Shown piece after piece: positions 31,523-52,605 of a DNA stretch of 64,000 nucleotides. Origin of the DNA: a bacterium (GTDB lineage: Bacteria > UBA8248). Numbering within the stretch: position 1 is the stretch's first letter; every line of letters begins with the position of its first letter. The notes under the pieces were generated by a model, which had not been told where the DNA came from, searched no databases, and worked only from the letters and a program-made list of their open reading frames with translations. A program made the translations under genes and the position numbers. Where the stretch lies: positions 1,664,001 to 1,728,000 of the forward strand of contig OZ241326.1 in the NCBI GenBank assembly GCA_965199855.1, read 5' to 3'.

Positions 31523-32002
31523 ATGCCCCACTTCATCTTCGACGCCTGCATCGGGTGCTCGGTGTGCGAGCCCGTTTGTCCGACGAAGGCCATCACGGGC
31601 GAGCCGCGCGAGATCTACAAAATCGACCCCACCCTCTGCATCGACTGCGGCGTGTGCGGCAAGTATTGCCCGGCGTTCGCCATCCAGGACGACGAGGGCG
31701 AGGTGATACGCAACATCAAGCACAAGGAGATGCCCAAGGCGTTCGTCCTGGAGGAGAACTGCACGGGTTGCGTCTGGTGCGTGGACGTCTGCCCGTTCGA
31801 CTGCATCCGCATGGCGCCCTCGTCCGTCGAGCGGGATCACAGCGCGGTGGCCGTCGTGGATCAATCCACCTGCGTCGGCTGCCGGCTCTGCGAGGAGATT
31901 TGCAACAAGGGGGCGATCATCGTGCCGAAGCACGAGGACGAGTCCGAATACATGACGCCGTTCATGCACGAATTCGTAACCTCCCCCCTTCGCGCCTATT
32001 GA
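31523..32002 (+). CDS. polyferredoxin with four [4Fe-4S] motifs
   Basis: CIGCSVCEPVC, CIDCGVCGKYC, CTGCVWCVDVC and CVGCRLCEEIC. Confidence 0.92.
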   Translation: MPHFIFDACIGCSVCEPVCPTKAITGEPREIYKIDPTLCIDCGVCGKYCPAFAIQDDEGEVIRNIKHKEMPKAFVLEENCTGCVWCVDVCPFDCIRMAPSSVERDHSAVAVVDQSTCVGCRLCEEICNKGAIIVPKHEDESEYMTPFMHEFVTSPLRAY

Positions 32003-32026
32003 GCGCGTCGAAGCCGGGCCGTTCCG

Positions 32027-32053
32027 ACTCCCCCGTCCCGGGGGAGTTTTTTT
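32027..32053 (+). terminator. intrinsic terminator
   Basis: ACTCCCCCG-TCC-CGGGGGAGT followed by TTTTTT just after the ferredoxin stop. Confidence 0.8.
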
Positions 32054-32069
32054 CGTCCGCGCGAACTCC

Positions 32070-32098
32070 TTGACGCCGAAGGCGGGCTTGGGTAGCTT
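32070..32098 (+). promoter_or_regulatory. putative sigma70 promoter for rel-nfi
   Basis: TTGACG-N17-TAGCTT immediately after the terminator. Confidence 0.4.
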
Positions 32099-32185
32099 TC
32101 CGGGCCGTGGCCGGATGGAGGGGGCGGCCCCGCTCTTTCCGGGGACGAGCCGCCGCCGGAGCCGGTCGAAAGAGGAGGGAATCCG

Positions 32186-38262: not shown

Positions 38263-41200
38263 CTATCCGCTCTGGCCGCGAATGATGCTGGCGAGCTGGC
38301 GGATGATGGCGACGGAGATGGCGGGATGATCGTGGATCAGCTGCAAAAGCGGCTCTTTCTCGATGCCCAGCAGGGAGGCGTCCTTGCTGGCGCGCGCGCC
38401 CGCGCTTCTGCCTTCTTCGCCGAACAGTGCGATTTCTCCGAACGAGGTGGGCGGGCCGAGCGTGGCCAGTATCCTCGGCTCCCCGCTCGTCCGGCTCTGC
38501 GTGATCTCGATTTCCCCGTCCACGATGACGTAGAGGTAGTCGCAGGGGTCTCCCTGCTCGAAAAGAATTTTTCCCGCCGGCGCCTGGATTTCCCGCGAAA
38601 TGTTGCTCAGGATTTTGAGCTGCTCCGCGCTCATCGCCTCGAACATGTTGACGCCTTTGAGGAACAGGGCCTTTTCAATGGTCGAGAGCATGGCTTTCTC
38701 CTGTCGGGATGAGGTTTCTCCGGGCCTTCCGCGCCGGCCGAGCCCGCGGCGCGCCTGAATCCGCACCATTTCGCTTTCGTCATTCTTCGCGGCTCTCAAA
38801 GCCGCTTCAACGGCTTCTTCGTCCTGCAGGACGCCCGCCAGGGCGGCGACGGCGGCCTCGCGGATGAAGGGATCCTCATGCGAGGCGCGCGCCCCGAAGC
38901 GGGCGATCCACGCCGCCGCCGTCTCATGCGCCGCGCCCGCGAGGTATTTTCCCGCCGCGTCGATGGCGATGGCCTGAAGCCAGGCGTTGTCGGAATTCGC
39001 GTATGTCTCCAGCGCCTCGTCGATGGATGCGTCGGGTATTTCCCAGAGTTTTCTGCCCTCCGAGATTTTCTCCTCGGTCGATCTGCCCAGAAGCAGGGGC
39101 TCGAGAGCGAGGATGAGGATCCTCGCGCCGCCGGCGGAGGAGAAATCCGAGAGCGTCTCGATGGCGATCGCCCTTGATGAAGAAGAGCCGCCCCGGGCGA
39201 TGGATTCCGCCACGGTGTCCACCGTCTTCTCGTCTCCAATCACCCCCAGAAGATCCAGCAGCACCAGCTGCCTCTCTTCCACGGCGTCGCCCAGCGCCTT
39301 TCGCAGCATCGTGAAGGGGGCGGCGTTTTCCTGGCGTTCGATGGCGCGGAGATGGCTGATGACGGCATACGTCTCCTTGAGGCGCTCCACGGCGAACGAG
39401 GAGAGCGCCTCGACGATTTCCGCCGCGCCCATCTCCCGCTCGTCGCTTTTGGCGCTTTTGAGCAGAAGCGGCGCGAGAAACGAAGCCACGCCGGAGCCTT
39501 CGAGGGAGAGAGTTCCTTTTCGCTTCATCTTCTTCAGGGAATCGACGGCCTGGCTTCGCACCAGCGCGTCGGCGTCCGAGAGGGCGCGCAGGGCGCGCTC
39601 GAAGTTCTCCCTCGTTCCCCTCTCGCCGAGCTGCCGCACGCCCCTGCGCCGAATCGCCGCGCTCCTGTCCGCCGTGGCCGCGCGGAGGACTTCCTCCATC
39701 TTCTCCTCGTCCACGCCCTGGTTCATGGCCAGGGCCGCGATGGCCTCCAGGGCGGCTCCGCGGACCCTTTCCTCCTCCTGATGGAGATAGGGAATCAGCC
39801 GTCTGATGAACCGCGGGTTCCGGAGTTCTCCGATGCACCGCAGAGCGCAGACCCTGGCCGCCTCGTCTTCCTCGCTGAGCATCCGGTGCAGCGTTTGCAG
39901 GCCGTTGGCGAGCCAGAAGAGGTCGTCCGATCGCACGAGCAGCCGAATGGCGCGCGCCCTCGCTTCCGGGGAGCGGCTCTCCAGGCATTGGTGAACCAGG
40001 TCCGCCATCTCCTCGGTCAGCCCGACGGCTTCGGCCGCGTCCATGGCGGCGCATTGAACGGCCGGGTCTTCCGCCGCCAGGTATTCCGCGACCACGCTCC
40101 GCATTTTTTCGCTTTCCTTCGCCTCGGGCGCCCCGGCGAGGATTTTCAGCAGCCCGGCGGCCGCCTCCCCCCTTCTCCTGGGAATTTCCGCGAGAATCGC
40201 CTCGAACGCCTCGCCCCCGCCGGCGTCGGCCATCATCCGGGCGGCGAAGACGCAGGAGTCGTCATCCCCTTCGCGCACGTTCTTTTTCAGCATCGCCGCG
40301 CTGTCGGCGTCGATCGGGCCGAAGCCCTCCCGCGCGTAGCGATAGAGGCCCAGGCTCCGCTCCTCGAGCATCCTCCGCAGGGCGGCGCCGTATTCGCGGC
40401 GCACGAAGAAGCCGGCGGCGAGGTAGGCGAGGGCGATGAAAAGAGAGATGAGCGCCACTTGGCCGGGGCTCAGGGGGAAGAGGGCGAGGCCGGTCGGCTT
40501 GATGACGAGCAGGGCTGCGCCGCTGACGATGCTGGCCACGGCCACCACCTGCCCCGCGACGAACGCGCCGACCCGCGCGCGAATGGCCGGGGAGACCGCG
40601 TTGTAGAGCAGGGCGTTGATGGCGTTTCGGATGGACTCCTGAAGGTTCTTGTTGTTGAAGCGCAGGAAGACGGCCGAATAGAAGCCCGGCGAAATCGCCA
40701 TGCCGAGGAGTCCGACGATCGTGGTGAGCGGATAGATGAGGTTCGCCGTGCCCAGACCGAGCCGCTTGATGACGCGCGGGGTGATGAACGTTTGAACGAG
40801 AAGGGAGAAGGCGCTGCCGATGGCGGTGAAATACCCGAGGAACGAGGCGAGTTGCGCGCGATCCGGGAACGCTTCCCGGAAAACGAGGCTGTATTGAAAA
40901 TCCTGAAAACTTCTGAGGATGACCACGAGAAAGCTGAACAGGGCGAACGCGCAGACGTATCCATTCGTCCTGAGCAGCGTCAGATTCCCTTCTTTCGAGG
41001 CCGTTTTCGTCCTTTTGCGCTTTCGCGGCCCCGCGTCCTCGATGAGGTGCTCCCGAAGGCGCCATTCGGCGTATTGCACCGCCCCGATGCTGACGATGAT
41101 GGCGCCGATCCACACGTAGAGCAGATTCGTGACGCTTCCCAGGACGGGGATGAGCGCCGGGATGGACAGCCCCCCCAGGATGCCGCCGCAGCGTCCCCCC

Positions 41201-41673
41201 GTCAGGATGAGCGGAACCAGCCGCTTCGATTGCAGGACGTCGAGATATTGGCCGTAGAGGGCGCGGAAGTTGTTCGGCAGCATGTTCGTGAACATGACGA
41301 ACAGCGTGTGCAGGAGCGGAAATGCGATGGGCATCGCATAGGCGCGCACGTCGGCGAAGACGAGCAGCTGGATGCCGAGGATGAGCGCGATGAAGAAGGC
41401 CAGAACGGTCTTGAACATCGCGGGGATGGACAGTTTTTCGGTCAGCGAGGAATAGAAGGAGCTGATGAGGATGATGACGAGGGCGTTGAAGATATACATG
41501 TAGGGCAGGAAGCCCGGCCCGACCTCGGAGAGGAACAGCGCCTCGGACGCGGCGAGGCCGATGGAGAACTGCACTCCGATCAGAAAATAGAACAGGAAGA
41601 ACACGGAGAAAACGAGGATTTCTTCCCGCTGGATGTCGAACGCTTTTTTGAGGAGCCTGGCCATGTTGCTCAC
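38263..41673 (-). CDS. NTT/TLC-like nucleotide transporter domain + HEAT repeats + cyclic-nucleotide-binding domain
   Basis: About 12 TM with ALFLSEVGPGFLPYMYI, DVLQSKRLVPLI, DFQY and RLGLG; central HEAT repeats (DPAVQCAA, EERVRGAA, DALVRSQA, DPFIREAA); C-terminal LFEQGD...YVIVDGEI...FGEIAL...RSA cNMP domain. Confidence 0.82.
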   Translation of the reverse strand: MSNMARLLKKAFDIQREEILVFSVFFLFYFLIGVQFSIGLAASEALFLSEVGPGFLPYMYIFNALVIILISSFYSSLTEKLSIPAMFKTVLAFFIALILGIQLLVFADVRAYAMPIAFPLLHTLFVMFTNMLPNNFRALYGQYLDVLQSKRLVPLILTGGRCGGILGGLSIPALIPVLGSVTNLLYVWIGAIIVSIGAVQYAEWRLREHLIEDAGPRKRKRTKTASKEGNLTLLRTNGYVCAFALFSFLVVILRSFQDFQYSLVFREAFPDRAQLASFLGYFTAIGSAFSLLVQTFITPRVIKRLGLGTANLIYPLTTIVGLLGMAISPGFYSAVFLRFNNKNLQESIRNAINALLYNAVSPAIRARVGAFVAGQVVAVASIVSGAALLVIKPTGLALFPLSPGQVALISLFIALAYLAAGFFVRREYGAALRRMLEERSLGLYRYAREGFGPIDADSAAMLKKNVREGDDDSCVFAARMMADAGGGEAFEAILAEIPRRRGEAAAGLLKILAGAPEAKESEKMRSVVAEYLAAEDPAVQCAAMDAAEAVGLTEEMADLVHQCLESRSPEARARAIRLLVRSDDLFWLANGLQTLHRMLSEEDEAARVCALRCIGELRNPRFIRRLIPYLHQEEERVRGAALEAIAALAMNQGVDEEKMEEVLRAATADRSAAIRRRGVRQLGERGTRENFERALRALSDADALVRSQAVDSLKKMKRKGTLSLEGSGVASFLAPLLLKSAKSDEREMGAAEIVEALSSFAVERLKETYAVISHLRAIERQENAAPFTMLRKALGDAVEERQLVLLDLLGVIGDEKTVDTVAESIARGGSSSSRAIAIETLSDFSSAGGARILILALEPLLLGRSTEEKISEGRKLWEIPDASIDEALETYANSDNAWLQAIAIDAAGKYLAGAAHETAAAWIARFGARASHEDPFIREAAVAALAGVLQDEEAVEAALRAAKNDESEMVRIQARRGLGRRGRPGETSSRQEKAMLSTIEKALFLKGVNMFEAMSAEQLKILSNISREIQAPAGKILFEQGDPCDYLYVIVDGEIEITQSRTSGEPRILATLGPPTSFGEIALFGEEGRSAGARASKDASLLGIEKEPLLQLIHDHPAISVAIIRQLASIIRGQSG

Positions 41674-41751
41674 TTGCGGAGCGAGACGCGCGCGCGCCTC
41701 GCCCTCGGGGGCGCGCGGGATGGGAGCGGTAGAGAATGCCCGGATTCTAGC

Positions 41752-43389
41752 CTAGAATTTTCGGGATTTCCAGGAATAGAACGCGAGGGCGTCCTCCGCC
41801 CACTGCGCGCAGTTTTCGCTGAAGCGCCGCCAGCGGCTGTTGGCGCACTGGGCGCGAACGGGGTCGGCGTTTCCCTCAGCGATCAGGCCGCTCAGGGGCG
41901 AGAGGTCGAATTCGGCGCGCACCGGCGTTCTGCCGCGCGCCTCGGCGTTGAGGAGGGACAAGAAGCGCGCGAACGCATGGAAGGCGCCGCGAATTTTCTC
42001 GCACAGCCGCTCCGCGCCTCCCGCGTATGCTACCAGGGGGGGAACCAGGGGAGCGTAGCGGTTGAGCTCCATGCCGCCTTCCGTGCGGTTCGTGATGCTG
42101 TCCACGCCGACGACGCCGATGGAATCGTCTGAAAATTCAATCGGGAACAGTCTGGCGTAGAGCGCCTCCACAACCGGGCCCGCGCGGCTGAGCCGAAGAT
42201 GAACGCGGACGCTGAACAGGCCGAAGTCGATCCAGTCGCATACCAGCGGAAGGTAGCGGACGCCGAACAGCTGCTCGTAGTTTTCGATGGCGTCCGCCAG
42301 AAGGCGGATGGCGTCCTTTCGGGGGCGGGAGGCTTCGCGCAGGCGGGTGCCGAGTCCGGGCGCGCAGTCGCGGAGCGTTCGCCGCAGGGCGTCCGGAGAG
42401 GCCGCGCCGGACGCCGAAGGGGCGGCTTCCCGGGTCTTGACGTAGGCTTCCGAGGTGGCCGGGCTGGCGCGGAAGCGGCGCATGAGCCAGTCCAGCGCCC
42501 GGAGGTGGTCGCCGTTTTCCGCGTCGAGCGAGAGGGGAAGGGGCATCGCGCTCTCCGCGGCGACGCCGAGTCTGCTCAAATCCGGAAGCCCGAACCCGTC
42601 GGGATGCGCGTCCAGGCGGAAGCATCCGCGCCCGCCGCCCCCTTCCTGGGGCTTGATGAAGAAGGTTGCGGCTCCCCACCGCTTCGCCAGGGCGGACGCG
42701 GTATCCAGAATGGCGGCGGCCGCGGCCTCAGGCCCTCCTCCGTTCAATTCCACCACCTCGTATCTGGCCGTCAGGCGGCTCCCCCGGCCGTCCTCTGCGG
42801 CGCCTCGCCCGTTCGCGCCGCTTCCGTTCAGAAGTTGATAGGTGGTTTTCTTGTTGGACAGCGGGCCGCCGGGGGCGGTGAGCGGCCCCGGCACGACGAC
42901 GACCCCCCGCGCCTCCAGCACCTGGGCCAGGCTCGCGTCGTAGAGGCTTCGCTGGGCGGCCTGGCTGATGACGAGAAGCTCTCCGGGCGCCTTGGCGGCG
43001 CGCGCCAGAAGCTCTTCGCGCCGGTTCAGCGCCTTGACGGGGATGGAAAGCCCCAGGCGGCTCAGATGCGCGCTCATCACCCGCGCCGTCTCCGCCGTGA
43101 GGGGCAGCCGGCTCGGGGAGCCGTCCAGCAGGAGGATTTCTCCCGGACGCCGACCGGGCGCTTCTTCCCGCTGAATGCGGAGGTCGGTGAATCGGGCGTC
43201 CCGGGACGCCCATTGGTTGAGGCGATCGATCAGGGTCTCGTTCAAATCGCCGGCGTTCGAGTCGAATTCCCGGCTCACGCGGCGCAAATCCCAGACGCCG
43301 CCGCTCGCGTCGGGCGTGAGCCCGTAGAGAGAAGGCTCCCGGTCGATGAGCGCGTGGTGGGCGCGGGCTGGGGTTTTCCGTCGGGCCAC
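41752..43389 (-). CDS. hypothetical protein with a divergent ATP-grasp-like core
   Basis: LSNKKTTYQLL and FFIKPQEGGGGRGCFRL resemble ATP-grasp B-domain motifs; late EFDL...IAEGNADP resembles the D...ExN metal site. GTG start at 43389 is inferred. Confidence 0.55.
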   Translation of the reverse strand: MARRKTPARAHHALIDREPSLYGLTPDASGGVWDLRRVSREFDSNAGDLNETLIDRLNQWASRDARFTDLRIQREEAPGRRPGEILLLDGSPSRLPLTAETARVMSAHLSRLGLSIPVKALNRREELLARAAKAPGELLVISQAAQRSLYDASLAQVLEARGVVVVPGPLTAPGGPLSNKKTTYQLLNGSGANGRGAAEDGRGSRLTARYEVVELNGGGPEAAAAAILDTASALAKRWGAATFFIKPQEGGGGRGCFRLDAHPDGFGLPDLSRLGVAAESAMPLPLSLDAENGDHLRALDWLMRRFRASPATSEAYVKTREAAPSASGAASPDALRRTLRDCAPGLGTRLREASRPRKDAIRLLADAIENYEQLFGVRYLPLVCDWIDFGLFSVRVHLRLSRAGPVVEALYARLFPIEFSDDSIGVVGVDSITNRTEGGMELNRYAPLVPPLVAYAGGAERLCEKIRGAFHAFARFLSLLNAEARGRTPVRAEFDLSPLSGLIAEGNADPVRAQCANSRWRRFSENCAQWAEDALAFYSWKSRKF

Positions 43390-43406
43390 GGCTTCGCTTC
43401 GGATTC

Positions 43407-44576
43407 CTAGATCGTGACTTTGCGCTGGCGCATGAAGTGCTTGACCACCCAATCCGCGATCGCGCCGCCCACGGCCTTCTCGCCGGCGAGGGAGGAGGGG
43501 CTCGGCTCCATGCAGCTCAGGGCGCGTATCCCCGTCATGCGGCGCGCCTCCTCGCGCGCGTCCTCTTCGTTGGCGAGTCTGCCGGAGATGAGCATATTCT
43601 CCTCCTCCACCGCCAGATGGCTGCGGATCCAGTGGACGATGAGCGTCGATTCCAGCGTATCACACGCGCAGACGACCAGGCCCCTGCGCGCGAGCCAGTC
43701 CTTGAGCCAGGGGTCGCTCGCCACGTGAAGGCTGGCGTCCGAACAGGGAGAGTCCGCCAGTTCCGCGATGACGATCTCTCCCTTCGCGCAGGCGTGGCGA
43801 AGCAGGTTCCGCGCGCATCGCCTGGCTTCGTTCCTGAAGACGGCGCAGGTGGAGGGCAGGCCCACGTCCACGAAATCCCACCCGAGTCGCGTGGAATCGA
43901 AAAACCCCAGCTGTCTTCCGTAGTTCACCTGCATCAGATCCCGCATCCGTCCCGTCCCGGTGAGCTTCGCGTATGAGGCGCGGATGCCCGAGGAGTGCAG
44001 GGAGGAGGCGAGAGAGGACGCGCAGGTCGTCTTGCCTACGTCCATCTCGGAGCCGGCGATGAGGACGATGGGCGCGCGCGGGATTCCCTCTTCATCGACG
44101 GGGCATCGGGTGTCGGGGATGACGGGCAGACGGGAGAGCCGGGCGGGCTTCCCGCGCAGCGGGACGCTTCCCTTCACCTCGATTTTCACGCACGGGGCCT
44201 GCGGGCTCCCGCACAGGCCGGAGACGCCGCCAACGTTCAGAAGATCCAGCGCGTCGCCCGGCATGACGGGCGCGTCCGGCTCCCGGCCCGAAATGCTCCG
44301 GTTCGCATACCGCCCGCCGATGGCGACGGCCACGCTCATTTTTTCGCGCAGGCGCACCTCGCTCGTCTTCCACGCTCCCTGCGTTCCGGGGAGGGGCTCC
44401 AGTATCTCCAGGCGATTGACGGGCGCGTTTTCGGGCGCGTCGGTAATCTCGCCCAAGGCGATGCCGCCGGGGGGAACGGGCTGCGGGTCGGACGTGAAAT
44501 CCGCCTGAAACGCATACGGGCTTTCCGGCGAGAGGAACAGGCCGCGGGCGGTGGATGCGAAAAAATCTACTTTCAA
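43407..44576 (-). CDS. DUF1611 (DgcN)-like P-loop protein
   Basis: IGGRYA, LDLLNVGGVSG, AGSEMDVGKTT P-loop, KLTGTG, DFVDVGLPST, ELAD, ISG; TTG start overlaps the upstream stop (TTGA). Confidence 0.7.
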   Translation of the reverse strand: MKVDFFASTARGLFLSPESPYAFQADFTSDPQPVPPGGIALGEITDAPENAPVNRLEILEPLPGTQGAWKTSEVRLREKMSVAVAIGGRYANRSISGREPDAPVMPGDALDLLNVGGVSGLCGSPQAPCVKIEVKGSVPLRGKPARLSRLPVIPDTRCPVDEEGIPRAPIVLIAGSEMDVGKTTCASSLASSLHSSGIRASYAKLTGTGRMRDLMQVNYGRQLGFFDSTRLGWDFVDVGLPSTCAVFRNEARRCARNLLRHACAKGEIVIAELADSPCSDASLHVASDPWLKDWLARRGLVVCACDTLESTLIVHWIRSHLAVEEENMLISGRLANEEDAREEARRMTGIRALSCMEPSPSSLAGEKAVGGAIADWVVKHFMRQRKVTI

Positions 44577-46033
44577 CGCTTCTCCATGTCCCGGGAAGGC
44601 GAAAGAGCGAGATGCCGAGTGAACGCATCTATCATTTCGCGCGCGGAGGAGGATATCTGCGCCTCCCCTCCTTCATGGATGGAGGAAATCCCCTCCAGCT
44701 TGCAGAACGCCCCCCTCGGCTCCACTATCGCCCCTTTCGCCGGGGGAGAGCAAGTGACGAGAACCTCATCGCGCTCCCGAACCTCGTGCAGGCGGGAGCC
44801 TCGCCGGATGAATTCGAGGCTCCCGTTTCTGATGGCGTATACGCCGGGCGTCAGCGAGCGGCCGACCCTCACGCGCGCCGCGCTCGTGTTGCGAAGGATC
44901 AGCTGAAAGCCTGAGAGCTCCGGCTTGTCGAGGTCGGCGAGCAGGCCCCGGCGCTCGTCCATGGAGGCGCCCGGGTCGAGAAATTCGGCCAGATGCCAGT
45001 AGGTGGTGGGGGGGGCGCCGCCGCCCTGGATTTCCTCGAGCTCGGTCATCAGCTGCGTGGTTCCGAGCACGCGCGGGTTCAGCTCCAGGGCGTAGGGCCT
45101 GTCTTGGTGGACGATGAAATCGACGCCGTATATTCCCCGGTAGCCCGCGCCGGCTATCCACTCTCCGATTTTCAGGGTGGCTTCCTCGATTTTCCGCCGA
45201 CTCGCCGGAGAAACCCGCCGCCGATACGCCGCGTAGTCGCTGCCGGCGTAGTCGAAGCGGTGCATGGAGCAGCCGGGAATCCCGGTGAACATCACCGAGG
45301 GGTGGGACATCCAGGGCTTTCCGCCGCGAACGACTCCCGCCGCGCCGACGGCGGGGCCCTCTAGGAATTTGCTCGCTATCACGAGGGCGTCTCGCCCCAG
45401 TTTCTCGATGAGTTCGGCCCGCTTGCGCGAGAGTGCCCCGGGTGAGCCGATGAGGTGCGTCTGGTTGCCCGAGGAGCCGATGCGCTCGGAGACGATCATC
45501 GAGGGCCCGAATTCCTCAAGCTGCCTCGCGCCCAGCTCGCCCAGCGCCGTCGCTTCGCCCGGGGGAACGTCGAGACCGGCTTCGACGGCGCGGAGGCGAA
45601 ACGCTATCTTGTCGTCGAAGCGGGTTTTGATCTTCACCGGATTCGCCAGGACGCGGAGCCCGCCCCCGGCCCGCTCCGCGAGTTCGGCGAGAAATTCCGT
45701 GGAGCGATAGGGGATGACGCATCGCGGGCCCTCTCCTCGCGAGAGGTATTCCCGAATCTCCCGTCCCAGCGCGCCCGCGTATGCCTCCACCAGGGAGGCG
45801 TGCGTCCAGACGATGCGCCTGTTTTGGCCGCGCTCCACGGCGAAGTAGCGCAGGCGTCCGTCCCATTCGGGGCCGTCCAGTCCGTAGTCGCAGGCGATGA
45901 GAAAATCGAGGGGAACGATGTTCTCCACCGTGATGGAATCCGCCGCGCGCAGTCCCTGGAAGCCGAACGTCGCGCCCTCCGGAACGGCGGCGCGCAGCCT
46001 GTCGTAAAGCTCTTCTTTCGCGGGCCGGGCCAA
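44573..46033 (-). CDS. ATP-grasp amino-acid/peptide ligase (PGM1-like)
   Basis: FDDKIAFR, GSSGNQTHLI, IASKFLEG, YAGSDY, GYRGIYGVDFIV...ALELNPR; AAGGA RBS before TTG. Confidence 0.8.
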   Translation of the reverse strand: MARPAKEELYDRLRAAVPEGATFGFQGLRAADSITVENIVPLDFLIACDYGLDGPEWDGRLRYFAVERGQNRRIVWTHASLVEAYAGALGREIREYLSRGEGPRCVIPYRSTEFLAELAERAGGGLRVLANPVKIKTRFDDKIAFRLRAVEAGLDVPPGEATALGELGARQLEEFGPSMIVSERIGSSGNQTHLIGSPGALSRKRAELIEKLGRDALVIASKFLEGPAVGAAGVVRGGKPWMSHPSVMFTGIPGCSMHRFDYAGSDYAAYRRRVSPASRRKIEEATLKIGEWIAGAGYRGIYGVDFIVHQDRPYALELNPRVLGTTQLMTELEEIQGGGAPPTTYWHLAEFLDPGASMDERRGLLADLDKPELSGFQLILRNTSAARVRVGRSLTPGVYAIRNGSLEFIRRGSRLHEVRERDEVLVTCSPPAKGAIVEPRGAFCKLEGISSIHEGGEAQISSSAREMIDAFTRHLALSPSRDMEKR

Positions 46034-46265
46034 AAGGCGCGTTCCTTCGTCGGGAGATCGCCCGGAACGTCGGGGCGGCGGAAACGGCTGATTCTAATCC
46101 GGCGGCTTCGCCGCATCAAACGGCGCCCCGATGGTTCGCGGCGGGGGAGGACTCCGGGTGGGGGCTTCCGCGCCGCGCCGCGCCCTGTGATAGGATGCGC
46201 GGCGAACCATTTCCAGGAGCGCGGCGGCGAGGCGCGGAAGCTCGCGAACGCCGGGAGAGGGGCGA

Positions 46266-47180
46266 ATGCCGGAAACGGCTCTTGAGGCGGATGAATGCTC
46301 GGTGATCCCGGCGTCGGAGTCCGGAGGGGAGAAATTCCGGCGAAGCCTGATGCGCTCCAAGCCGGCGGTGCTCGGCGGTGCCTTCCTCGTTCTGCTCGTT
46401 CTCGTTTCTCTCGCCGCTCCCCTCATCGCGCCGCAAAACCCGAAGAAGGTGGACGTGCGCCTGCGCCTCAAGCCTCCCGCGTGGGCGGAGGGGGGAAACG
46501 CGAGCCATCTGCTGGGAACCGACGCGCTGGGCCGCGACGTCCTGAGCCGGCTCATGTACGGCGGGCGCGTCTCCATCGTGGTGGGCCTGAGTTCGGTGGT
46601 GATTTCGGGGGCGATCGGGGTCGTCCTCGGCCTCGTTTCCGGCTTTTTCGGCGGAAAGCTGGACGACCTCATCAGCGGATTCTCCGAAATTCAGCTGGCG
46701 TTTCCCTTCATCCTTCTGGCCATCACCATCATGGCGGTCATCGGGCCGGGGCTGCTCAACATCATTCTGGTGCTGGGCGTCAGCCGGTGGGTGGCATACG
46801 GCCGGGTGGTGAGGGGGCAGGTCATCTCGATTCGGGAGCGCGAATTCATCGAGGCCGCCCGCGCCCTGGGCTACCCTCTCCATCGCGTCCTGTTCATGCA
46901 GGTGCTGCCCAACGCGCTCTCCCCGCTCATCGTCATCGCCACGTTCGCCGTGGCGGGAAACATCATTTCCGAATCCTCGCTGAGCTTCCTGGGGCTCGGC
47001 GTTCCGCCCTCGGTCGTCACCTGGGGGGGAATGCTCTCCGAGGGGCGCGAGTATCTTCGCGGCGCCTGGTGGATGGCGACTTTCCCGGGGTTCGCCATCA
47101 TGGCGACGGTCCTGAGCATCAACCTGCTCGGCGACTGGCTGAGGGACTACATGGACCCCCGCCTCGGCGACGATTTGTAG
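46266..47180 (+). CDS. peptide/nickel ABC transporter permease (DppC/OppC-like)
   Basis: LLGTDALGRDVLSRLMYGGRVS, EFIEAARALG EAA loop, LSFLGLG, WGGMLSEG, GDWLRDYMDPR. Confidence 0.93.
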   Translation: MPETALEADECSVIPASESGGEKFRRSLMRSKPAVLGGAFLVLLVLVSLAAPLIAPQNPKKVDVRLRLKPPAWAEGGNASHLLGTDALGRDVLSRLMYGGRVSIVVGLSSVVISGAIGVVLGLVSGFFGGKLDDLISGFSEIQLAFPFILLAITIMAVIGPGLLNIILVLGVSRWVAYGRVVRGQVISIREREFIEAARALGYPLHRVLFMQVLPNALSPLIVIATFAVAGNIISESSLSFLGLGVPPSVVTWGGMLSEGREYLRGAWWMATFPGFAIMATVLSINLLGDWLRDYMDPRLGDDL

Positions 47181-47210
47181 GCTCTTTTCGCTTTCTCGGA
47201 GAAGGACGCG

Positions 47211-48758
47211 ATGAAGAAGGCCCTGCTGTGCGGATTCTGTCTGCTGGCTCTCGCCCTCGCCGCCTGCGGCCGCGAAGCGGGGGAGAAGCCGCTTACGGTT
47301 CTCCTCTCGGTGGAGGCGAACACGCTCGACCCCCATTTCGCCACCTCCACCATCGAGTGGTGCGTCCTGATGAACCTGTTCGACCCGCTCATCCACCGGC
47401 GCGACGACATGACGCTCGAACCGGCGCTCGCCGAGCGCTGGGAGGTGGACGAGACCAGGAAAGTCTGGACGTTTCACCTCCGCAAGGGGGTGAAGTTTCA
47501 CAACGGCGAGCCGTTCGACGCCGAATCCGTGCGATACACTTTCGAGCGGATGCGCGATGAGAGGCTCAGGCCCCGCATCACGGCGGCGCGAAGGATTTTC
47601 CTGGACAGGGTGGAGAAGGCGGACGCCCACACCGTGAGGATTCACACGAAGCGTCCGGTGGCGAACCTGCCGGTGTGGATGGTGAACGCCTTCATGCTGC
47701 CGCCGAAATACTATTCGTCCACGCCTCCGAAGGAGCTGCTGAGAAAGCCCGTGGGCACCGGCCCCTACAGGCTGGTGAAGTGGATCAAGGACGACCGGAT
47801 CGAGATGGAGGCCAACGGCGCCTGGTGGCGGGGCGGGCCGAAGATCGGGCGCGCGGTGTGGCGGCCGGTGCCCGAGGCCTCCGCGCGGATAGCGGAGCTG
47901 GAAACGGGCGGAGCCGACATCATCATGAACATCTCGCCCGATCAGGCGAAAACCATAAAGGCGAGCGCGGACGGCCTTCAGTTCATGGGGGTGCAGGGGG
48001 GGCGGCGGGTGTATATCGGGATTCGCGCCGACCACGGCGCGCTGGGCGATGAGCGCGTTCGCCGGGCGCTGAACTACGCGGTCGATTTCGACGCCATCGC
48101 CAAAAGCGTTCTCCTGGGGCACGGCTCCCGGATGGGCAGCGTCGTGAACGCCCCGAACAGCGCCCCGGACGTGAAGGCGTATCCCCACGATCCCGAAAAG
48201 GCCAGGGCGCTTCTCGCCGAGGCCGGCCTGGAGGATTCGGACGGAGACGGCGTTCTGGAGACGAACGGAGAGCCCTTCGAGCTCAGGCTCGACGTGCCCG
48301 CCGCCAGGTATCTCAAGGGCAAGGAGATAGCCGAATCCGTGGCGGCGAATTTCCGCGCCGTGGGCGTCAAAGTGGAGGTCATTCCCCTGGAATGGTCGGT
48401 TTTTCTCGCCAAGAGAAGAAAGAAGACGCTCGCGCCCCTGTATTTTCACGGGTTCAGCTCCGCCTTCAACGAGGAGCTCGACCTGGGCGCGCTGCGCCCC
48501 GACCTGTTCGCCAACCTCACCGCCTGGCGGAGCGAGGCGTTCATCAGGAACTACGAAAAACTCGGCCAGACGTTCGACCCCGCAGAGCGCAGGCGAATCA
48601 GCTACGCCATGCAGCGCATCGCGCGGGAGGCCAGCCCCTGGGTGTTTCTCTGGAGCCAGTATGATTTTTTCGGCGTCAGCGCGAGAGCCGCGTGGACGCC
48701 GAGGCCGGACGAGAGAATCTATCTGCCCTCCGTCCGTTTGAGGGAAGCGAAGGAATAA
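47211..48758 (+). CDS. family 5 ABC substrate-binding lipoprotein (DppA/OppA-like)
   Basis: LALAAC lipobox, TLDPH, LAERWEV, LRKGVKFHNGEPF, GTGPY, VRRALNYAVD. Confidence 0.93.
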   Translation: MKKALLCGFCLLALALAACGREAGEKPLTVLLSVEANTLDPHFATSTIEWCVLMNLFDPLIHRRDDMTLEPALAERWEVDETRKVWTFHLRKGVKFHNGEPFDAESVRYTFERMRDERLRPRITAARRIFLDRVEKADAHTVRIHTKRPVANLPVWMVNAFMLPPKYYSSTPPKELLRKPVGTGPYRLVKWIKDDRIEMEANGAWWRGGPKIGRAVWRPVPEASARIAELETGGADIIMNISPDQAKTIKASADGLQFMGVQGGRRVYIGIRADHGALGDERVRRALNYAVDFDAIAKSVLLGHGSRMGSVVNAPNSAPDVKAYPHDPEKARALLAEAGLEDSDGDGVLETNGEPFELRLDVPAARYLKGKEIAESVAANFRAVGVKVEVIPLEWSVFLAKRRKKTLAPLYFHGFSSAFNEELDLGALRPDLFANLTAWRSEAFIRNYEKLGQTFDPAERRRISYAMQRIAREASPWVFLWSQYDFFGVSARAAWTPRPDERIYLPSVRLREAKE

Positions 48759-48838
48759 TAAAGGGCGCGCGGGGGCGGGACGTCTCCGTTCGGGGCGGCG
48801 CGCCCGCGCTTCGGGCGGGATGAAGCCGGAGGGCGAGG

Positions 48839-49756
48839 ATGGGCGCCTATCTTTTCAGAAGGCTCGTCAGAGCCGTCGTGGTCGTGGCCGGCGTCAGCTT
48901 CATTTCGTTCGCCGTCCTGTTCCTCTCGGGCGATCCGACGGACACGATGGTGGGCGAGGACTGGACGGTCGAGGAGGTCGGGAATCTCCGCCGGGAGATG
49001 GGCCTGGACAAGCCCTGGTTCGCGCAATATGGGCTGTACGTGAGCCGGGCCGTTCGCGGCGATTTTGGAGAAAGCCTGCGCTACCGCCAGCCCGCGTTCG
49101 AGCTCATCATGGAGCGCCTGCCGGCGACCCTGGAGCTCGCCTTCACGGCGCTCATTCTATCCATCGTCCTGGCGTTTCCCGTGGGGGTCGTGAGCGCGGC
49201 GCGGCGCGGCTCGCCCTACGATCACGGGGGAATGCTCTTCGCGCTCCTGGGCCAGTCCGTCCCCGTTTTCTGGCTCGGCCTGATGCTGATCCTCATCTTC
49301 GGGGTGCATCTGCGGTGGCTGCCGATCAGCGGAAGGAGCGGGTGGGAGCATCTGCTTCTGCCCGCCGCCGCGCTCGCCACCTATTCGATCGCCCGAAACG
49401 CGCGGGTGGTGCGGAGCGCCATGCTGGAGGTTCTGCGGCACGAATACGTGAAGACCGCCCGGGCGAAGGGATTGCCCGAATGGGTCGTCATCAACCTGCA
49501 CGCGCTCAGAAATTCCCTGATTCCGGTGATCACGATCATCGGCCTCGAGTTCGGGCACCTGCTGGGCGGGGCGGTGATCGTCGAGACGATATTCGCCTGG
49601 CCGGGCGTGGGCAGGCTCATGATCCAGGCCGTCTATGCGAAGGATTTCCCCCTCGTGCAGGCTTCGGTGACCATCACCGCGCTGATGTTCGTCTCCCTGA
49701 ACCTCATCGTTGACCTGATGTATTCCGTCCTCGATCCGAGGGTCAGACTGCATTGA
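48839..49756 (+). CDS. peptide/nickel ABC transporter permease (DppB/OppB-like)
   Basis: GLDKP, GDFGES, RLPATLEL, YVKTARAKGL, HALRN, ETIFAWPGVG, LDPRVR. Confidence 0.93.
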   Translation: MGAYLFRRLVRAVVVVAGVSFISFAVLFLSGDPTDTMVGEDWTVEEVGNLRREMGLDKPWFAQYGLYVSRAVRGDFGESLRYRQPAFELIMERLPATLELAFTALILSIVLAFPVGVVSAARRGSPYDHGGMLFALLGQSVPVFWLGLMLILIFGVHLRWLPISGRSGWEHLLLPAAALATYSIARNARVVRSAMLEVLRHEYVKTARAKGLPEWVVINLHALRNSLIPVITIIGLEFGHLLGGAVIVETIFAWPGVGRLMIQAVYAKDFPLVQASVTITALMFVSLNLIVDLMYSVLDPRVRLH

Positions 49757-50691
49757 GCGACATCGCGTATTTCTGGACGCCGGAATCCCTCCTGCACGAC
49801 AACGGCCGCCACGTGGAGAGCGTCGAGCGCGCCAGGCGCCTTGCGCCCGACAGGATCGCTCCGCAGGTTCCCTCGCTGAAGAATATGGCGGCCGCGCCCC
49901 ACGACGCCTCCGCGTGGGTGCTGAGGGTGCATGAGGAGGCGCACCACCGGTTCGTGCGCGAATCGTGCGCGAGGGGCCGCTGCGTTCTGGATCAGGGGGA
50001 CACCCGCGCCGGCCCCGGAAGCTACGAGGCCGCGCTCGCCGCCGTGGACGCGGCCCTCAGCGCGGCGGACGCCGTGATGACCGGACAGGCCGACGGCGCC
50101 TTTTGCGCCGCGAGGCCGCCGGGCCACCACGCTCTGCCCCATCAGTCGATGGGCTTCTGCCTGTTCGCCACCGTCTCCATTCTGGCGCGGTATCTGCAGG
50201 AGGAGCACGGCCTGCGAAGAATCGCCGTGGTCGATTGGGACGTGCACCACGGCAACGGCACCCAGCGCGTCTTCTGGCGCGACCCGGACGTGCTCTTCGT
50301 CTCCCTGCATCAGCATCCGCACTATCCGGGGACGGGCCTCGCCGGTGAAGCGGGAGAAGGGGCGGGCGCGGGCAAGACGCTGAACGTTCCCCTCGGGGCG
50401 GGGACGCCGGAGGCGGAATATCTGGCGAAATTCCGGGAGCTCGCGCTCCCCGCCGTCGAGGCGCACGCGCCGGAGGCGATCCTCATCTCGGCGGGCTTCG
50501 ACGCGCATCGCGATGATCCGCTCGGGGGTCTGACGCTGAGCGAGGCGGGATTCGCCGAATTGACCCGATGCGTCAGGGCGCTCTCGGAGGAGGTTTGCGA
50601 AGGGCGCGTCGTCAGCCTGCTCGAGGGCGGGTATGATCTCGACGCCCTGGAGCGCTCCGTCGTATCCCACCTGCGGGCGCTGTCCGCCTGA
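49753..50691 (+). CDS. histone deacetylase family amidohydrolase (AcuC/AphA-like)
   Basis: RPPGHHA, GFCLF, DWDVHHGNGTQ, SAGFDAH..DPLG, LEGGY; TTG start overlaps the dppB stop. Confidence 0.92.
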   Translation: MSDIAYFWTPESLLHDNGRHVESVERARRLAPDRIAPQVPSLKNMAAAPHDASAWVLRVHEEAHHRFVRESCARGRCVLDQGDTRAGPGSYEAALAAVDAALSAADAVMTGQADGAFCAARPPGHHALPHQSMGFCLFATVSILARYLQEEHGLRRIAVVDWDVHHGNGTQRVFWRDPDVLFVSLHQHPHYPGTGLAGEAGEGAGAGKTLNVPLGAGTPEAEYLAKFRELALPAVEAHAPEAILISAGFDAHRDDPLGGLTLSEAGFAELTRCVRALSEEVCEGRVVSLLEGGYDLDALERSVVSHLRALSA

Positions 50692-50824: not shown

Positions 50825-51457
50825 ATGGAAGCGGCCGCGGCGGTTCCAAAAGAAACGAGAATGTCCGGAACGAGACGCAGGATCGTGGAGGCGGCCGCAA
50901 GGCTCGTCTATTACAAGGGTTTTCACGCCACCTCCCTGGACATGGTGGCGCGGGCCGCCCGCGTGAACCGGGGAAGTCTGTATTATTTCTTTCGCTCGAA
51001 GAAGAACCTGGGGCTGGCCGTCATCGATCACTATGAGTCCATGCTCCATGAGAGCTATCTTTCCCCCGCGCTCGGCGGAGCGGCGAAGGGGAGCGAGAAA
51101 ATGCGGCGTCTGGCGGAGCGCTACGCCCGGATGCCGGCCCAGGATTCTCCGTGCTGCGGATGCCCCATCGGGAACCTCTCGCTCGAGCTCAGCGGCCTGG
51201 ACGAGGAGATGCGCGTCCGCCTGAAAGCCGTCTGGGAGGGGGTTTTCGGGAAAATCGCCCTCGTTCTGGAGCAGTCGCGGGAGGAAGGGGAGCTTCCGGG
51301 AGATATCGACCCGCTCCTGTGCGCGCGCTCTTTCTTCTCGCAGATACAGGGGGCGCACATCATCGCGAGATGCTCCCGGGACGAGTCTTCCCTGCGCGCC
51401 GACTGCGGGCGCGCCGTCGCGAGCCTGCCCTGGGCGAAGAGGGGAGAGGGGAAATGA
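50825..51457 (+). CDS. TetR/AcrR family regulator (NemR/LmrA-like)
   Basis: KGFHATSLDMVA...GSLYYFFRSK HTH; C-terminal CCGCPIGNLSLE. Confidence 0.9.
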   Translation: MEAAAAVPKETRMSGTRRRIVEAAARLVYYKGFHATSLDMVARAARVNRGSLYYFFRSKKNLGLAVIDHYESMLHESYLSPALGGAAKGSEKMRRLAERYARMPAQDSPCCGCPIGNLSLELSGLDEEMRVRLKAVWEGVFGKIALVLEQSREEGELPGDIDPLLCARSFFSQIQGAHIIARCSRDESSLRADCGRAVASLPWAKRGEGK

Positions 51458-52605
51458 ACGCGGAAGGGCGCGGGTTTCGACGCGGAAGCCCCCCCGGTTC
51501 GAGAGGGAGAGGCTGGCTCGTCTGGGCCGCTTTTCTGGCGGGGGCGGGGCTGGTCTGGCTGTTCACGGAGGGCTATTTCCAGAGGGTTCAGGATCCGGAC
51601 GCCGCGCCCCGCCCGGTCACGCCGCGCGGCGATCTGGCGGCCGAGGAGCAATCCAACATCGAGCTCTTTCGCGCCGCCTCCCCCTCGGTGGTCTATATCA
51701 CGAGGCTGGCGATGCGGCGGCGCGGGATGTTCAGCCTCAACCTGTTCGAGATTCCGCAGGGCACGGGCACGGGCTTCGTCTGGAACGACCGGGGCCACGT
51801 CATCACGAATCTGCACGTCATTCAGCGCGCGAGCGCCCTGCGCGTCACCCTGGCGGACGGCTCGGAGTGGGAGGCGCGCGTCGTGGGCGCGGCGCCGGAT
51901 CATGACCTGGCGGTTCTCTTCATCAACGCGCCGAAAAGACGCCTCAAGCCGATCTCCGTCGGCCGCTCCGCCAGCCTCCAGGTGGGCCAGAGGGTGTTCG
52001 CCATCGGCAATCCCTTCGGGCTGGATCAGACGCTCACGACGGGCATCATCAGCGCCCTGGGACGCGAGATCGACAGCGCCTCCGGCCGCAAGATCAGCGG
52101 CGTCATCCAGACGGACGCCGCCATCAATCCGGGCAATTCCGGGGGGCCGCTGCTGGACAGCGCCGCGCGCCTCATAGGCGTCAACACCGCCATTTTCAGC
52201 CCCTCGGGCTCCAGCGCGGGCATCGGCTTCGCCGTTCCCGTGGACACCGTGAACAGGGTCGTTCCCCAGCTGATTCGCCACGGCCGCGTCACGCGGCCGG
52301 GCCTCGGCGTCCACGTGGCCGATCGGGGAACGGCGGCGCGCTTCGGGGCGCGGGGGGTGCTGATCCTCCGCGTGCAGAAGGGCAGCGCCGCCGAGGCGGC
52401 GGGGCTGCGCGGCACGAGGAGAGGCGCGGGGGGGCGGCTTCTGCTCGGCGACGTCATCGTGGGCGTGGGGGCCGCGTCCGTCGCCTCGCCCGATGAGCTG
52501 CTGAACGCGCTCGACGCGCGCAAGGTGGGAGACGTCGTGGAGGTGCGCTTCACGCGCGGCGGAAAACAGATGAGCGTGAGCGTGAAGCTTCAGGCGCTCG
52601 GCTAG
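51454..52605 (+). CDS. HtrA/DegS-like S1C serine protease with one PDZ domain
   Basis: GTGFV, ITNLHV (His), DLAVL (Asp), QTDAAINPGNSGGPL (Ser), PDZ; ATG 51454 overlaps the TetR stop. Confidence 0.93.
   Translation: MNAEGRGFRRGSPPGSRGRGWLVWAAFLAGAGLVWLFTEGYFQRVQDPDAAPRPVTPRGDLAAEEQSNIELFRAASPSVVYITRLAMRRRGMFSLNLFEIPQGTGTGFVWNDRGHVITNLHVIQRASALRVTLADGSEWEARVVGAAPDHDLAVLFINAPKRRLKPISVGRSASLQVGQRVFAIGNPFGLDQTLTTGIISALGREIDSASGRKISGVIQTDAAINPGNSGGPLLDSAARLIGVNTAIFSPSGSSAGIGFAVPVDTVNRVVPQLIRHGRVTRPGLGVHVADRGTAARFGARGVLILRVQKGSAAEAAGLRGTRRGAGGRLLLGDVIVGVGAASVASPDELLNALDARKVGDVVEVRFTRGGKQMSVSVKLQALG

Follow-up and report, generated by a model that had tools for sequence, protein, structure and literature searches.

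What do four adjacent genes, which bring together predicted ATP-dependent ligases and a membrane protein carrying a domain for the binding of cyclic nucleotides (cNBD), do in an uncultured bacterium? These genes, termed g1 to g4, are located on the minus strand of a 64,000-nt stretch of contig OZ241326.1 (hereafter the window; ~67% G+C), whose host belongs to an uncultured Nitrospinota lineage. The explanation that we put forward, and to which we give an even chance of being correct, is that they specify a ribosome-independent amide-ligase pathway for a small metabolite and that g4 serves as the transporter of this pathway, gated by cyclic nucleotides.

Genetic organization of the g1-g4 cluster

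The list of open reading frames (ORFs) and the pattern of G+C content at third codon positions (GC3) revealed four consecutive, co-oriented genes on the minus strand (46033-38263). The first, g1 (44573-46033; 486 aa), encodes an ATP-grasp ligase of the BesA/PRK06524 (“biotin carboxylase-like”) type. The product of g2 (43407-44576; 389 aa) has a predicted all-beta N-terminal domain followed by a BioD/CTP-synthase-like P-loop domain, and is peripheral to DUF1611. Gene g3 (41752-43389; 545 aa) encodes a putative divergent ATP-grasp-fold enzyme with insertions, representing a family without a Pfam model, and g4 (38263-41673; 1136 aa) encodes a protein composed of a putative, divergent NTT-type domain, HEAT repeats and a cNBD. 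A GC3 bias typical of true genes was observed in all eight frames of the region, i.e. in g1-g4 and in the four genes divergent from them.

The genes g1 and g2 overlap by 4 nt (TTGA), while g2 and g3 are separated by 17 nt, counted to the GTG start codon set for g3 (43389); the longest ORF would begin at 43452, within g2. The spacing between g3 and g4 is 78 nt, or 87 nt if the ATG codon used by an identical 1133-aa database entry (P0110) is taken as the start. Upstream of g1, a 232-nt intergenic region (46034-46265) separates it from the divergent genes. An earlier note on this DNA, made from the sequence alone, had described the four-gene set, its spacings and the 232-nt divergent gap, and all of these coordinates are borne out by the ORF list.

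The ATP-grasp protein g1 and the predicted ATP-grasp protein g3

Among the four proteins, only g1 passes a Pfam cut-off for ATP-grasp domains (PF02655 ATP-grasp_3, 28.1 bits compared to 23.2). Comparison with NCBIfam models identified NF005096 (PRK06524; E 2.8e-16) and the BesA model (E 2.4e-6), and the closest solved relative is BesA itself, an L-propargylglycine--L-glutamate ligase (PDB 8yi6; E 6e-5). The equivalog scores are nevertheless far under the respective cut-offs (58.7 vs 684 bits for PRK06524 and 26.6 vs 750 bits for BesA). Judged from these sequence comparisons, g1 is related to BesA and PRK06524, but is not the same enzyme. A Mg/ATP-binding motif of the D...E-x-N type is present (GVD305F...ALE318-L-N320-PR). 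The atlas clusters of g1 look-alikes (61-84% ATP-grasp_3; proteins of 450-520 aa) are most frequent in Actinomycetota, Myxococcota and Pseudomonadota.

The protein encoded by g3 gave no Pfam or NCBIfam match (at E 10 and 0.1 or lower, respectively) and no sequence match in the PDB, and a profile built from 17 sequences retrieved nothing relevant from the PDB either. The AlphaFold2 (AF2) model generated from the 17-sequence alignment (mean pLDDT 79.6, pTM 0.85) was compared with PDB structures using Foldseek. This yielded no fewer than 103 matches with E values not exceeding 0.001 (from 5e-6), and those listed are all ATP-grasp enzymes: D-Ala-D-Ala ligases (the best matches), DcsG, LysX/ArgX, PurT/PurK and an ATP-grasp peptide ligase from Streptomyces. 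Relative to query length the TM-scores were 0.29-0.39, and relative to target length they reached 0.66; such modest values are expected, since a core of ~300 residues carries large insertions.

Invariant across the 17 sequences are the segment K246-P-x-x-G-G-G-G-x-G (G250-253 and G255), D495 and E505-G-N507. These columns, matched by motif, conform to the pattern of the nucleotide and Mg sites of ATP-grasp enzymes and may fulfill these roles in g3. The predicted fold and the motifs together indicate that g3 is probably an ATP-grasp-fold enzyme. The two ATP-grasp proteins proposed previously for this locus are thus retained, g1 by Pfam and g3 by predicted fold and motifs only. The possibility that they are paralogues was also considered, but no such relationship was detectable (BLASTP E 0.8).

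When 1.84 billion cluster representatives were scanned in full using HMMER, the g3 profile identified 42 matches at E 0.001 or lower, 14 of which are at least 430 aa long and have a family-length alignment. Relatives of g3 at 31-50% identity include P0052 and P0205-P0224. Pfam analysis of 15 g3 relatives revealed no relevant domain, and no g3 match was found in a plasmid collection. Word-seeded searches returned 53 proteins for g3 and 56 for g2; the ones named (nine and seven, respectively) are all annotated as “hypothetical protein” and originate from metagenome-assembled genomes of Nitrospinae, Nitrospinota, Nitrospinaceae or “Tectomicrobia”. Prediction of a g3-g2 complex from both alignments gave a score of 0.00, which was counted neither for nor against an interaction.

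The P-loop protein g2

The best Pfam match of g2, covering 42 P-loop residues, is to PF07755 (DUF1611_C), with 17.2 bits compared to a gathering score of 25. Matches to AAA_26 and to TIGR00347 (bioD; 19.5 vs 83.3 bits) are also sub-threshold, the latter indicating that g2 is not dethiobiotin synthetase proper. The N-terminal part of the DUF1611 family (DUF1611_N, PF17396) gave no match at E 10 or lower, and precomputed PF07755 annotation is found on only one of 56 g2 homologues.

In the AF2 model of g2 (pLDDT 78.4, pTM 0.80; built, like that of g3, on a shallow, single-lineage alignment) an all-beta N-terminal domain (~residues 1-160) precedes the P-loop domain. The segment 211-243 is highly conserved, yet disordered in the model. 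The top Foldseek matches were CTP synthetase (amidoligase domain), ATPase-type HypB and dethiobiotin synthetase, and an 18-sequence profile compared with the PDB retrieved BioD only (E 2.5e-4), in an alignment of 45 residues that includes K182 and K204. DUF1611 structures were absent from the listed fold and profile matches. The invariant residues of the g2 alignment comprise G175, the Walker A motif G181-K-T-T184 and K204-L-T-G-T-G-R, and the K204 motif aligns with the second lysine of BioD (K-P-x-x-x-G).

BioD and the N-terminal domain of CTP synthase phosphorylate a carbamate or carbonyl oxygen, and thereby drive C-N bond formation. Given its BioD/CTP-synthase-like predicted fold, g2 would be a third ATP-dependent enzyme of the ligase/cyclase type, and it is best read as such and not as an acetyltransferase. 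The earlier note had labelled g2 as DUF1611 and given it the role of a DgcN-like acetyltransferase. Regarding the label, DUF1611 is indeed the nearest Pfam family, but the gathering score is missed and DUF1611_N was not detected. The DgcN-based role has no basis here, because g2 fails DUF1611 and resembles BioD and CTP synthase. Moreover, the status of DgcN as a DUF1611 protein was not confirmed in the literature found, which shows only dgcN as a gene of a D-Glu pathway.

The putative NTT-HEAT-cNBD membrane protein g4

The protein encoded by g4 contains ~11-12 hydrophobic stretches (residues 19-426), followed by HEAT repeats (~480-980) and a C-terminal cNBD (1030-1115). The last two were recognized by Pfam (PF13646 HEAT_2, 1.6e-23, 83 bits; PF00027 cNMP_binding, 3.5e-21, 75 bits), and the phosphate-binding motif of the cyclic nucleotide monophosphate (cNMP) site is intact (FGEIAL...RSA). 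The N-terminal 480 residues have no match of their own to PF03219, the Pfam family of NTT proteins. A search with residues 1-480 returned 95 proteins, 20 of which, at 23-46% identity, carry PF03219 and HEAT, and in most cases also cNMP. PF03219 is absent from the close homologues of this domain, and several of its carriers are named Npt1/Npt2 family or ATP:ADP antiporter. Since N-domain homologues combine PF03219 with HEAT and cNMP, g4 can be considered a divergent NTT-HEAT-cNBD member. The same call had been made previously from the sequence, and it is now based on Pfam for HEAT and cNMP, and on the PF03219-bearing homologues for NTT.

The NTT-HEAT-cNBD architecture was described by Major et al. 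2017 (PMC5381601). In the part of that article available, the NTT-HEAT clade is given neither function nor gene context, and HEAT repeats are presented as mediators of protein-protein contacts; the titles in its reference list indicate that characterised NTTs carry nucleotides, nicotinamide adenine dinucleotide (NAD) or S-adenosylmethionine (SAM). No later functional study of NTT-HEAT proteins was found in the literature searched.

Promoter-like sites are present upstream of both g1 (TTGATG-17-TAGAAT; 46091-46119, minus strand) and g4 (TGGAAA-17-TAGAAT; 41744-41772, minus strand), the latter lying across the stop codon of g3. The TAGAAT(C) box of g1 is kept in relatives and that of g4 in most of them. 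The box at the end of g3 suggests that independent transcription of g4 is also possible, and because this promoter-like box is conserved, g4 may not be strictly co-transcribed with g1-g3. As the TAGAAT(C) -10-like box is common to the regions upstream of g1 and g4 in most relatives, the g4 promoter may be of the g1 type.

The gene directly downstream of g4 (35215-38121, minus strand) specifies a multihaem cytochrome c of 968 aa, parts of which are cbb3/FixO-like. Of the promoter-like sites in the region, the best one (TTGACG-17-TATAAT; 38218-38190) belongs to this gene, and since this site marks its end, the g1-g4 unit probably terminates before the cytochrome gene.

Conservation of the cluster in related loci

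A search of genome contigs with a profile of the g3 alignment identified 29 related loci (L001-L029); those with a taxon in their titles all belong to this lineage. Twelve window proteins were mapped onto these loci by tblastn, and the intergenic gaps were extrapolated from the ends of the tblastn matches.

In all 29 loci g2 and g3 adjoin. A g1 homolog is present in 27 (the remaining two, L005 and L028, begin inside g2), and g4 was detected at a coverage of at least 30% in 26; L027 and L028 end at or just past g3, and L017 ends 172 residues into g4. Every locus of sufficient length contains g1-g4 in colinear order, with protein identities of 50-88%. Since g2 and g3 adjoin without exception and the shortfalls of g1 and g4 are due to contig ends, this arrangement is not a matter of chance. 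The close spacing is also maintained: in 24 of 27 loci the g1-g2 gap lies between -6 and -1 nt, and the g2-g3 gap is -1 to +23 nt in 29/29, while g3 and g4 are 73-110 nt apart (28 loci).

The divergent genes show comparable conservation, with dppC divergent from g1 in 25 of the 26 informative loci, the HDAC-family gene placed after dppB in all 23 loci extending that far, and a dppB-HDAC gap of -4 nt in 17 of these 23. The flanks outside both gene groups are kept equally well, as the genes for the multihaem cytochrome (21 loci), TetR (18 loci), CopA and HtrA were found down to 50-57% identity. Because the ~20-kb block is inherited together, shared gene order cannot separate function from ancestry.

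Two loci depart from the common pattern. L021 (g3 61% identical) keeps g1-g4 as well as the beginning of the cytochrome gene, and no dpp match was found in the 1.3 kb 5′ of g1. Since all four genes are retained although their upstream neighbour differs, g1-g4 behave as a unit. The position of dppC is occupied in this locus by a co-oriented gene for a SAM-dependent methyltransferase (L021:423-1175), located 170 nt upstream of g1, which may be a tailoring gene of the g1-g4 operon. In L017 (1300-6100), dppA, HDAC and HtrA each match in three to four separate pieces and dppB is only 65% identical, while g1, g2, g3 and dppC are represented by single full-length matches. The fragmentation may reflect decay or a local assembly error.

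Relatives of g2 and g1 on plasmids

Genetic contexts outside the lineage were sampled from the plasmid collection only. The search with g2 gave three plasmid matches and its Bacillus relative gave five more; five contexts were examined. Homology to g2 was determined by hhalign for two of the five proteins, from Bacillus paranthracis (99.2%, E 1.7e-19, 238 columns) and Sulfitobacter (98.9%, 255 columns), in both cases across both domains, and by tblastn only for the other three. Motifs common to g2 and these relatives are GGRxANRSISG, DLLNxGGV, GSxMDVGKT, KL[TS]GTGRMRD and DFVDxG. Four of the five proteins match PF07755 at 16.5-22.6 bits (~40-60 P-loop residues), with no match for the Priestia protein, and DUF1611_N was found in none of the five at E 0.01 or lower. 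Their NCBI annotation is inconsistent (DUF1611, dethiobiotin synthase or hypothetical).

All five g2-family genes are located in same-strand clusters with a transporter gene, and in two cases (the Bacillus and Priestia plasmids) the g2-like gene directly precedes an ATP-grasp gene. These two, from B. paranthracis (L030:1670-9993) and Priestia megaterium (L031:4613-13301), are phosphoenolpyruvate (PEP) mutase clusters, in which genes for PEP mutase, a split phosphonopyruvate decarboxylase, a carbamoyltransferase, an MFS transporter and two ATP-grasps share one strand. Pfam LAL_C2 is found on three of the four ATP-grasps of the two clusters, in two cases above its cut-off. The ATP-grasp following the Priestia g2-like protein matches LAL_C2 above the cut-off, and the further Priestia ATP-grasp also matches this model; the one right after the Bacillus g2-like protein reaches no ATP-grasp cut-off and is tied to the others by BLASTP. 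No description of these clusters was found in the literature searched.

The remaining three contexts, from Rhodobacterales plasmids (L037:6121-9645, L038:6015-9522 and L039:6054-9459), consist of genes for an alpha/beta hydrolase, the g2-like protein and an ABC exporter, with no ATP-grasp gene. They are located near genes for an S8 peptidase, a sigma factor and peptidase-domain/bacteriocin-type export proteins.

Plasmid relatives of g1 were found in 15 records (21-32% identity), including Rhizobium genes annotated as “biotin carboxylase”. One of the Rhizobium relatives adjoins genes for a beta-eliminating-lyase-related protein, a C45 peptidase, a complete peptide ABC importer and an amidase.

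The divergent ABC-HDAC genes

The four genes divergent from g1 (plus strand) encode a DppC/OppC/NikC-type ABC permease (46266-47180; BPD_transp_1 and OppC_N by Pfam), whose tie to g1-g4 is unproven, a family-5 substrate-binding protein (SBP) with an N-terminal hydrophobic segment (47211-48758; SBP_bac_5 at 4.3e-83), a DppB/NikB-type ABC permease identified by Pfam (48839-49756; Opp2B 334 bits, cut-off 350) and a class-II-like HDAC-family zinc amidohydrolase (49753-50691; 312 aa; PF00850 Hist_deacetyl at 2.2e-88). The last two genes overlap by TTGA, the start codon of the HDAC-family gene being TTG.

With two permeases and a family-5 SBP, the region contains the components by which an ABC importer of the Dpp/Opp/Nik type is recognized. 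The NCBIfam scores of the DppC-like permease are under cut-off for both Opp4C (298 bits) and DppC (259 bits), and the best NCBIfam and PDB matches of the SBP are scattered over NikA, GsiB/YliB and DppA, with none at cut-off. No ABC ATPase (ABC_tran) was detected in the Pfam scan, which covered 46 window ORFs. The tblastn maps of the related loci show the same ABC-HDAC layout; ATPase genes were not sought there. The HDAC-family gene occupies the slot where dppD/F usually follow. Among PDB entries, it best matches the catalytic domains of HDAC6, 5ji5 (315 aa, Burkholderia) and HDAH, and the two homologues inspected from outside the lineage (~41-42% identity) each stand alone, with no ABC importer beside them.

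An alignment of 26 sequences of the g1/dppC intergenic region revealed that only two -10-like boxes are kept, TAGAAT on the g1 side and CTGTGATAGGAT on the dppC side. A shared operator was considered for this region and rejected on the basis of this alignment, in which the two boxes are separate. In the Rfam analysis of the window, only a tRNA (559-629) reached the gathering score, and nothing credible was found at 45950-46350.

Other features of the window

An unusual fusion is encoded by a single 598-aa ORF (17072-18868, plus strand), which combines IspH/LytB (residues 28-303) with a UbiA prenyltransferase (332-569). A 1387-aa protein (4666-8829, plus strand) has DUF748 as its sole Pfam match. 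The G+C content falls to 0.63 at 30001-34000, and a gene with an Mrr-type restriction endonuclease domain (30492-31004) is located beside a ferredoxin gene and relA/spoT. At 50825-52605 (plus strand), the TetR gene and the longest HtrA ORF (from 51151) share ~300 nt. HtrA probably starts later than this ORF, given that its trypsin domain is not reached until residue 206.

Discussion

According to the proposed explanation, g1-g2-g3 would constitute a translationally coupled operon of three soluble enzymes, each of which would activate a carboxyl or carbonyl oxygen at the expense of ATP and link it to an amine. In this scheme g1 would be a BesA/PGM1-type ligase, g2 a P-loop “amidoligase” with a family-specific beta N-domain, and g3 a very divergent Ddl-like ATP-grasp. 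We infer that the three enzymes act on one molecule and that the chemistry is amide formation. They would most likely build a small amide-linked (peptide-like or pseudopeptide) compound stepwise from common primary metabolites, without the ribosome or a non-ribosomal peptide synthetase (NRPS); in a variant of this scheme, two ligations would be accompanied by BioD-like ring closure or amidation by g2. The protein g4 would export the product or, alternatively, import a substrate, and binding of cAMP or cGMP at its C-terminal domain would gate transport. Its HEAT array could, purely conjecturally, dock the soluble enzymes. Because g2-family genes elsewhere pair with a dedicated transporter, g4 is the natural candidate for moving the product.

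The earlier note had proposed a non-ribosomal pathway for a small, possibly N-acetylated or D-amino-acid peptide, with acetylation on one operon and deacetylation on the other. An amide-ligase pathway is still the most economical reading of these genes, but the acetylation/deacetylation cycle is unsupported. The accompanying statement that no described pathway is known to have this composition agrees with our results, since none of the named pathways tested fits and the equivalog scores are far under cut-off. No paper linking genes of the g1-g4 type was found in the literature searched.

Several observations weigh against an amide-ligase pathway. No product, substrate or precursor gene is identifiable in the cluster, and the assignment of g3 rests on a 17-sequence single-lineage model with modest TM-scores by query length (0.29-0.39) and no sequence-level support. 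The ATP-grasps of the Bacillota clusters are not detectably homologous to g1 or g3 (g3 profile probability <1%), three of the five outside contexts of the g2 family lack an ATP-grasp neighbour, and the sole NTT-HEAT-cNBD-like plasmid gene found (Acaryochloris) has no ligase neighbours. In the relatives, g4 lies 73-110 nt from g3, and it has a conserved -10-like box. Finally, the whole ~20-kb block is syntenic within the lineage, which makes conservation of gene order weak evidence of function.

The divergent layout raises the possibility that both operons form one system, in which g1-g3 would make an N-acetylated or D-amino-acid peptide, with g2 acting in a DgcN-like manner, and the ABC-HDAC proteins would re-import and deacetylate it. 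The conserved divergence of dppC and g1 (25/26 informative loci), the translational coupling of the HDAC-family gene to the permease gene (TTGA; -4 nt in 17/23 loci by extrapolation), the D-Ala-D-Ala ligases heading the fold matches of g3 and the peptide ABC importer, C45 peptidase and amidase genes beside a distant g1 relative on a Rhizobium plasmid are all compatible with such a cycle, which we consider distinctly unlikely. The predicted fold of g2 resembles that of BioD/CTP synthase and not of an acyl-CoA transferase, and Pfam detected no GNAT or other acetyltransferase in the cluster. The flanks outside both operons are equally conserved, L021 lacks the dpp side next to g1, L017 has fragmented dppA, HDAC and HtrA matches together with intact g1-g3, the two outside HDAC homologues stand alone, and the intergenic region holds two separate -10 boxes with no shared conserved operator. 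The coupling of the two operons through acetylation, import and deacetylation, as suggested in the earlier note, is thus inseparable from common ancestry. A metallophore cycle would use the same two operons differently: g1-g3 would produce a chelator, g4 would export it, the Nik/Opp importer would recover it and the zinc amidohydrolase would free the metal. The permeases score best on the nickel/cobalt Opp1/Opp2/Nik models (Opp2B 334 vs 350 bits) and the SBP on NikA, genes for a copper P-type ATPase and TetR are next door, and the layout of biosynthetic genes, an MFS-clan transporter and an Opp-type importer may resemble that of the staphylopine cnt locus. However, all transporter scores are under cut-off and spread over peptide, glutathione and nickel models, CntA and CntC models are far under cut-off, there is no opine dehydrogenase or nicotianamine-synthase-like gene, and the linkage of the two operons is unproven; we regard this explanation as very improbable. 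A broader idea, speculative and rather unlikely in our view, is a Nitrospinota-specific secrete-and-recover cycle for a metallophore or signal, in which a three-ligase line of an ATP-grasp, a BioD-like cyclo/amidoligase and a novel ATP-grasp would build a new pseudopeptide, g4 would act as its cyclic-nucleotide-gated exporter and not as a nucleotide importer, and the Nik/Opp importer and the HDAC-family enzyme would form a re-uptake and cleavage arm.

Other readings concern g1-g4 alone. If g1-g3 modified a nucleotide or nucleotide cofactor (e.g. by amidation or aminoacylation) and g4 moved the derivative, this would accord with the cargo of characterised NTTs (nucleotides, NAD or SAM, according to reference titles in PMC5381601), with the UTP-activating domain of CTP synthetase as the best fold match of g2 and with the presence of PurT and PurK, which act on ribonucleotides, among those of g3. 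Such fold matches are generic for both superfamilies, however, no substrate of the NTT-HEAT clade is known from the available part of PMC5381601, and the g2 relatives are accompanied by MFS or ABC exporter genes in clusters of the phosphonate or peptide type instead of by nucleotide genes, so that a nucleotide-centred pathway appears rather unlikely. Alternatively, the ligases could add residues to a protein or ribosomal peptide, in the manner of RimK, LysX/ArgX or graspetide enzymes, with the HEAT repeats of g4 as a docking scaffold. LysX/ArgX are found among the g3 fold matches, HEAT repeats mediate protein-protein contacts (PMC5381601), and the Rhodobacterales g2-like genes have S8 peptidase genes in their vicinity, together with genes for the peptidase-domain ABC exporters that are typical of modified peptides. 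We think macromolecule modification quite unlikely, as the gaps within the operon (-4, 17 and 78 nt) leave no space in which a gene for a precursor or carrier could lie, little apart from the promoter boxes is conserved in the 232-nt and 78-nt regions, and Pfam revealed no LysW-like gene and no gene for recognition of peptides made by the ribosome and modified after translation (RiPPs). A RiPP or graspetide precursor beside the ligases was sought separately and rejected, with no room for it and no conserved small ORF, in a limited test that used no dedicated small-ORF model. An anti-phage defence system was also rejected: PADLOC gave generic HEAT/cNMP matches for g4 only, and none for g1-g3 or the HDAC-family protein. 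It is most improbable that g1-g4 are unrelated neighbours held together by lineage-wide synteny alone. The block from CopA to the cytochrome is indeed wholly syntenic, and word-seeded searches found g3 and g2 only in this lineage, but the start/stop overlaps and gaps of at most 23 nt are kept down to 50% identity, a g2-family gene followed by an ATP-grasp gene recurs in Bacillota, and g1-g4 remain together in L021 despite the changed upstream neighbour.

The amide-ligase pathway, if correct, bears on several protein families. NTT-HEAT(-cNBD) proteins are widespread (cyanobacteria, chlamydiae, oomycetes and others), and their function has been unassigned since their description in 2017. The position of g4 after three ligase genes leads to the testable idea that it is a cNMP-controlled metabolite transporter and not the ATP importer of an energy parasite. 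Two enzyme families without a Pfam model are also brought to attention, the g3 ATP-grasps and the g2 family, the latter found in natural-product-type clusters of three phyla; its chemistry would help to annotate such clusters, including the phosphonate ones. As the host is uncultured, a dedicated secondary-metabolite-like pathway would inform on its ecology. A secrete-and-recover cycle, if true, would provide the first functional context for the NTT-HEAT and g2 families. Should the product turn out to be a common osmolyte or dipeptide, interest in the finding would be modest.

Comparison with known systems

BacD, RizA, TabS and PGM1 are natural-product enzymes of the ATP-grasp type that act as L-amino-acid or peptide ligases. 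The clusters of these enzymes and of BesA resemble g1-g4 in having stand-alone ATP-grasps, which form amide bonds without an NRPS or the ribosome, and an adjoining transporter. The g1-g4 cluster lacks precursor and tailoring genes, and g3 has no sequence tie to a known ATP-grasp family. It adds a P-loop ligase-type enzyme, and its putative transporter is of the NTT-HEAT-cNBD type instead of a plain MFS or ABC protein.

In mycosporine-like amino acid clusters, the MysC ATP-grasp and the Ddl-like ligase MysD act in succession, and the use of two different ATP-grasp ligases on one small molecule is the likeness to the pathway proposed here. Pfam analysis of the g1-g4 cluster revealed neither dimethyl-4-deoxygadusol synthase nor O-methyltransferase genes. 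The PEP-mutase clusters of Bacillus and Priestia share with it a full-length g2 homologue followed by an ATP-grasp, a second ATP-grasp and an MFS transporter, but they additionally encode PEP mutase, phosphonopyruvate decarboxylase and carbamoyltransferase, for which g1-g4 has no counterparts.

At the level of single proteins, g2 shares its predicted fold, Walker A motif and second catalytic lysine with dethiobiotin synthetase and CTP synthase (SIMIBI), and differs from dethiobiotin synthetase in an extra N-domain of 160 residues and the conserved 211-243 segment. DUF1611/DgcN is the nearest Pfam family for its P-loop, from which g2 is set apart by sub-gathering scores, the lack of a DUF1611_N match and the all-beta N-domain. 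The protein g4 would have the same three-part architecture as the NTT-HEAT-cNBD proteins presented in the available part of PMC5381601, with an N-domain too divergent for PF03219. Taken as a whole, ATP-grasp-based, ribosome-independent amide synthesis with a dedicated transporter is a known kind of system, of which the g1-g4 composition is new.

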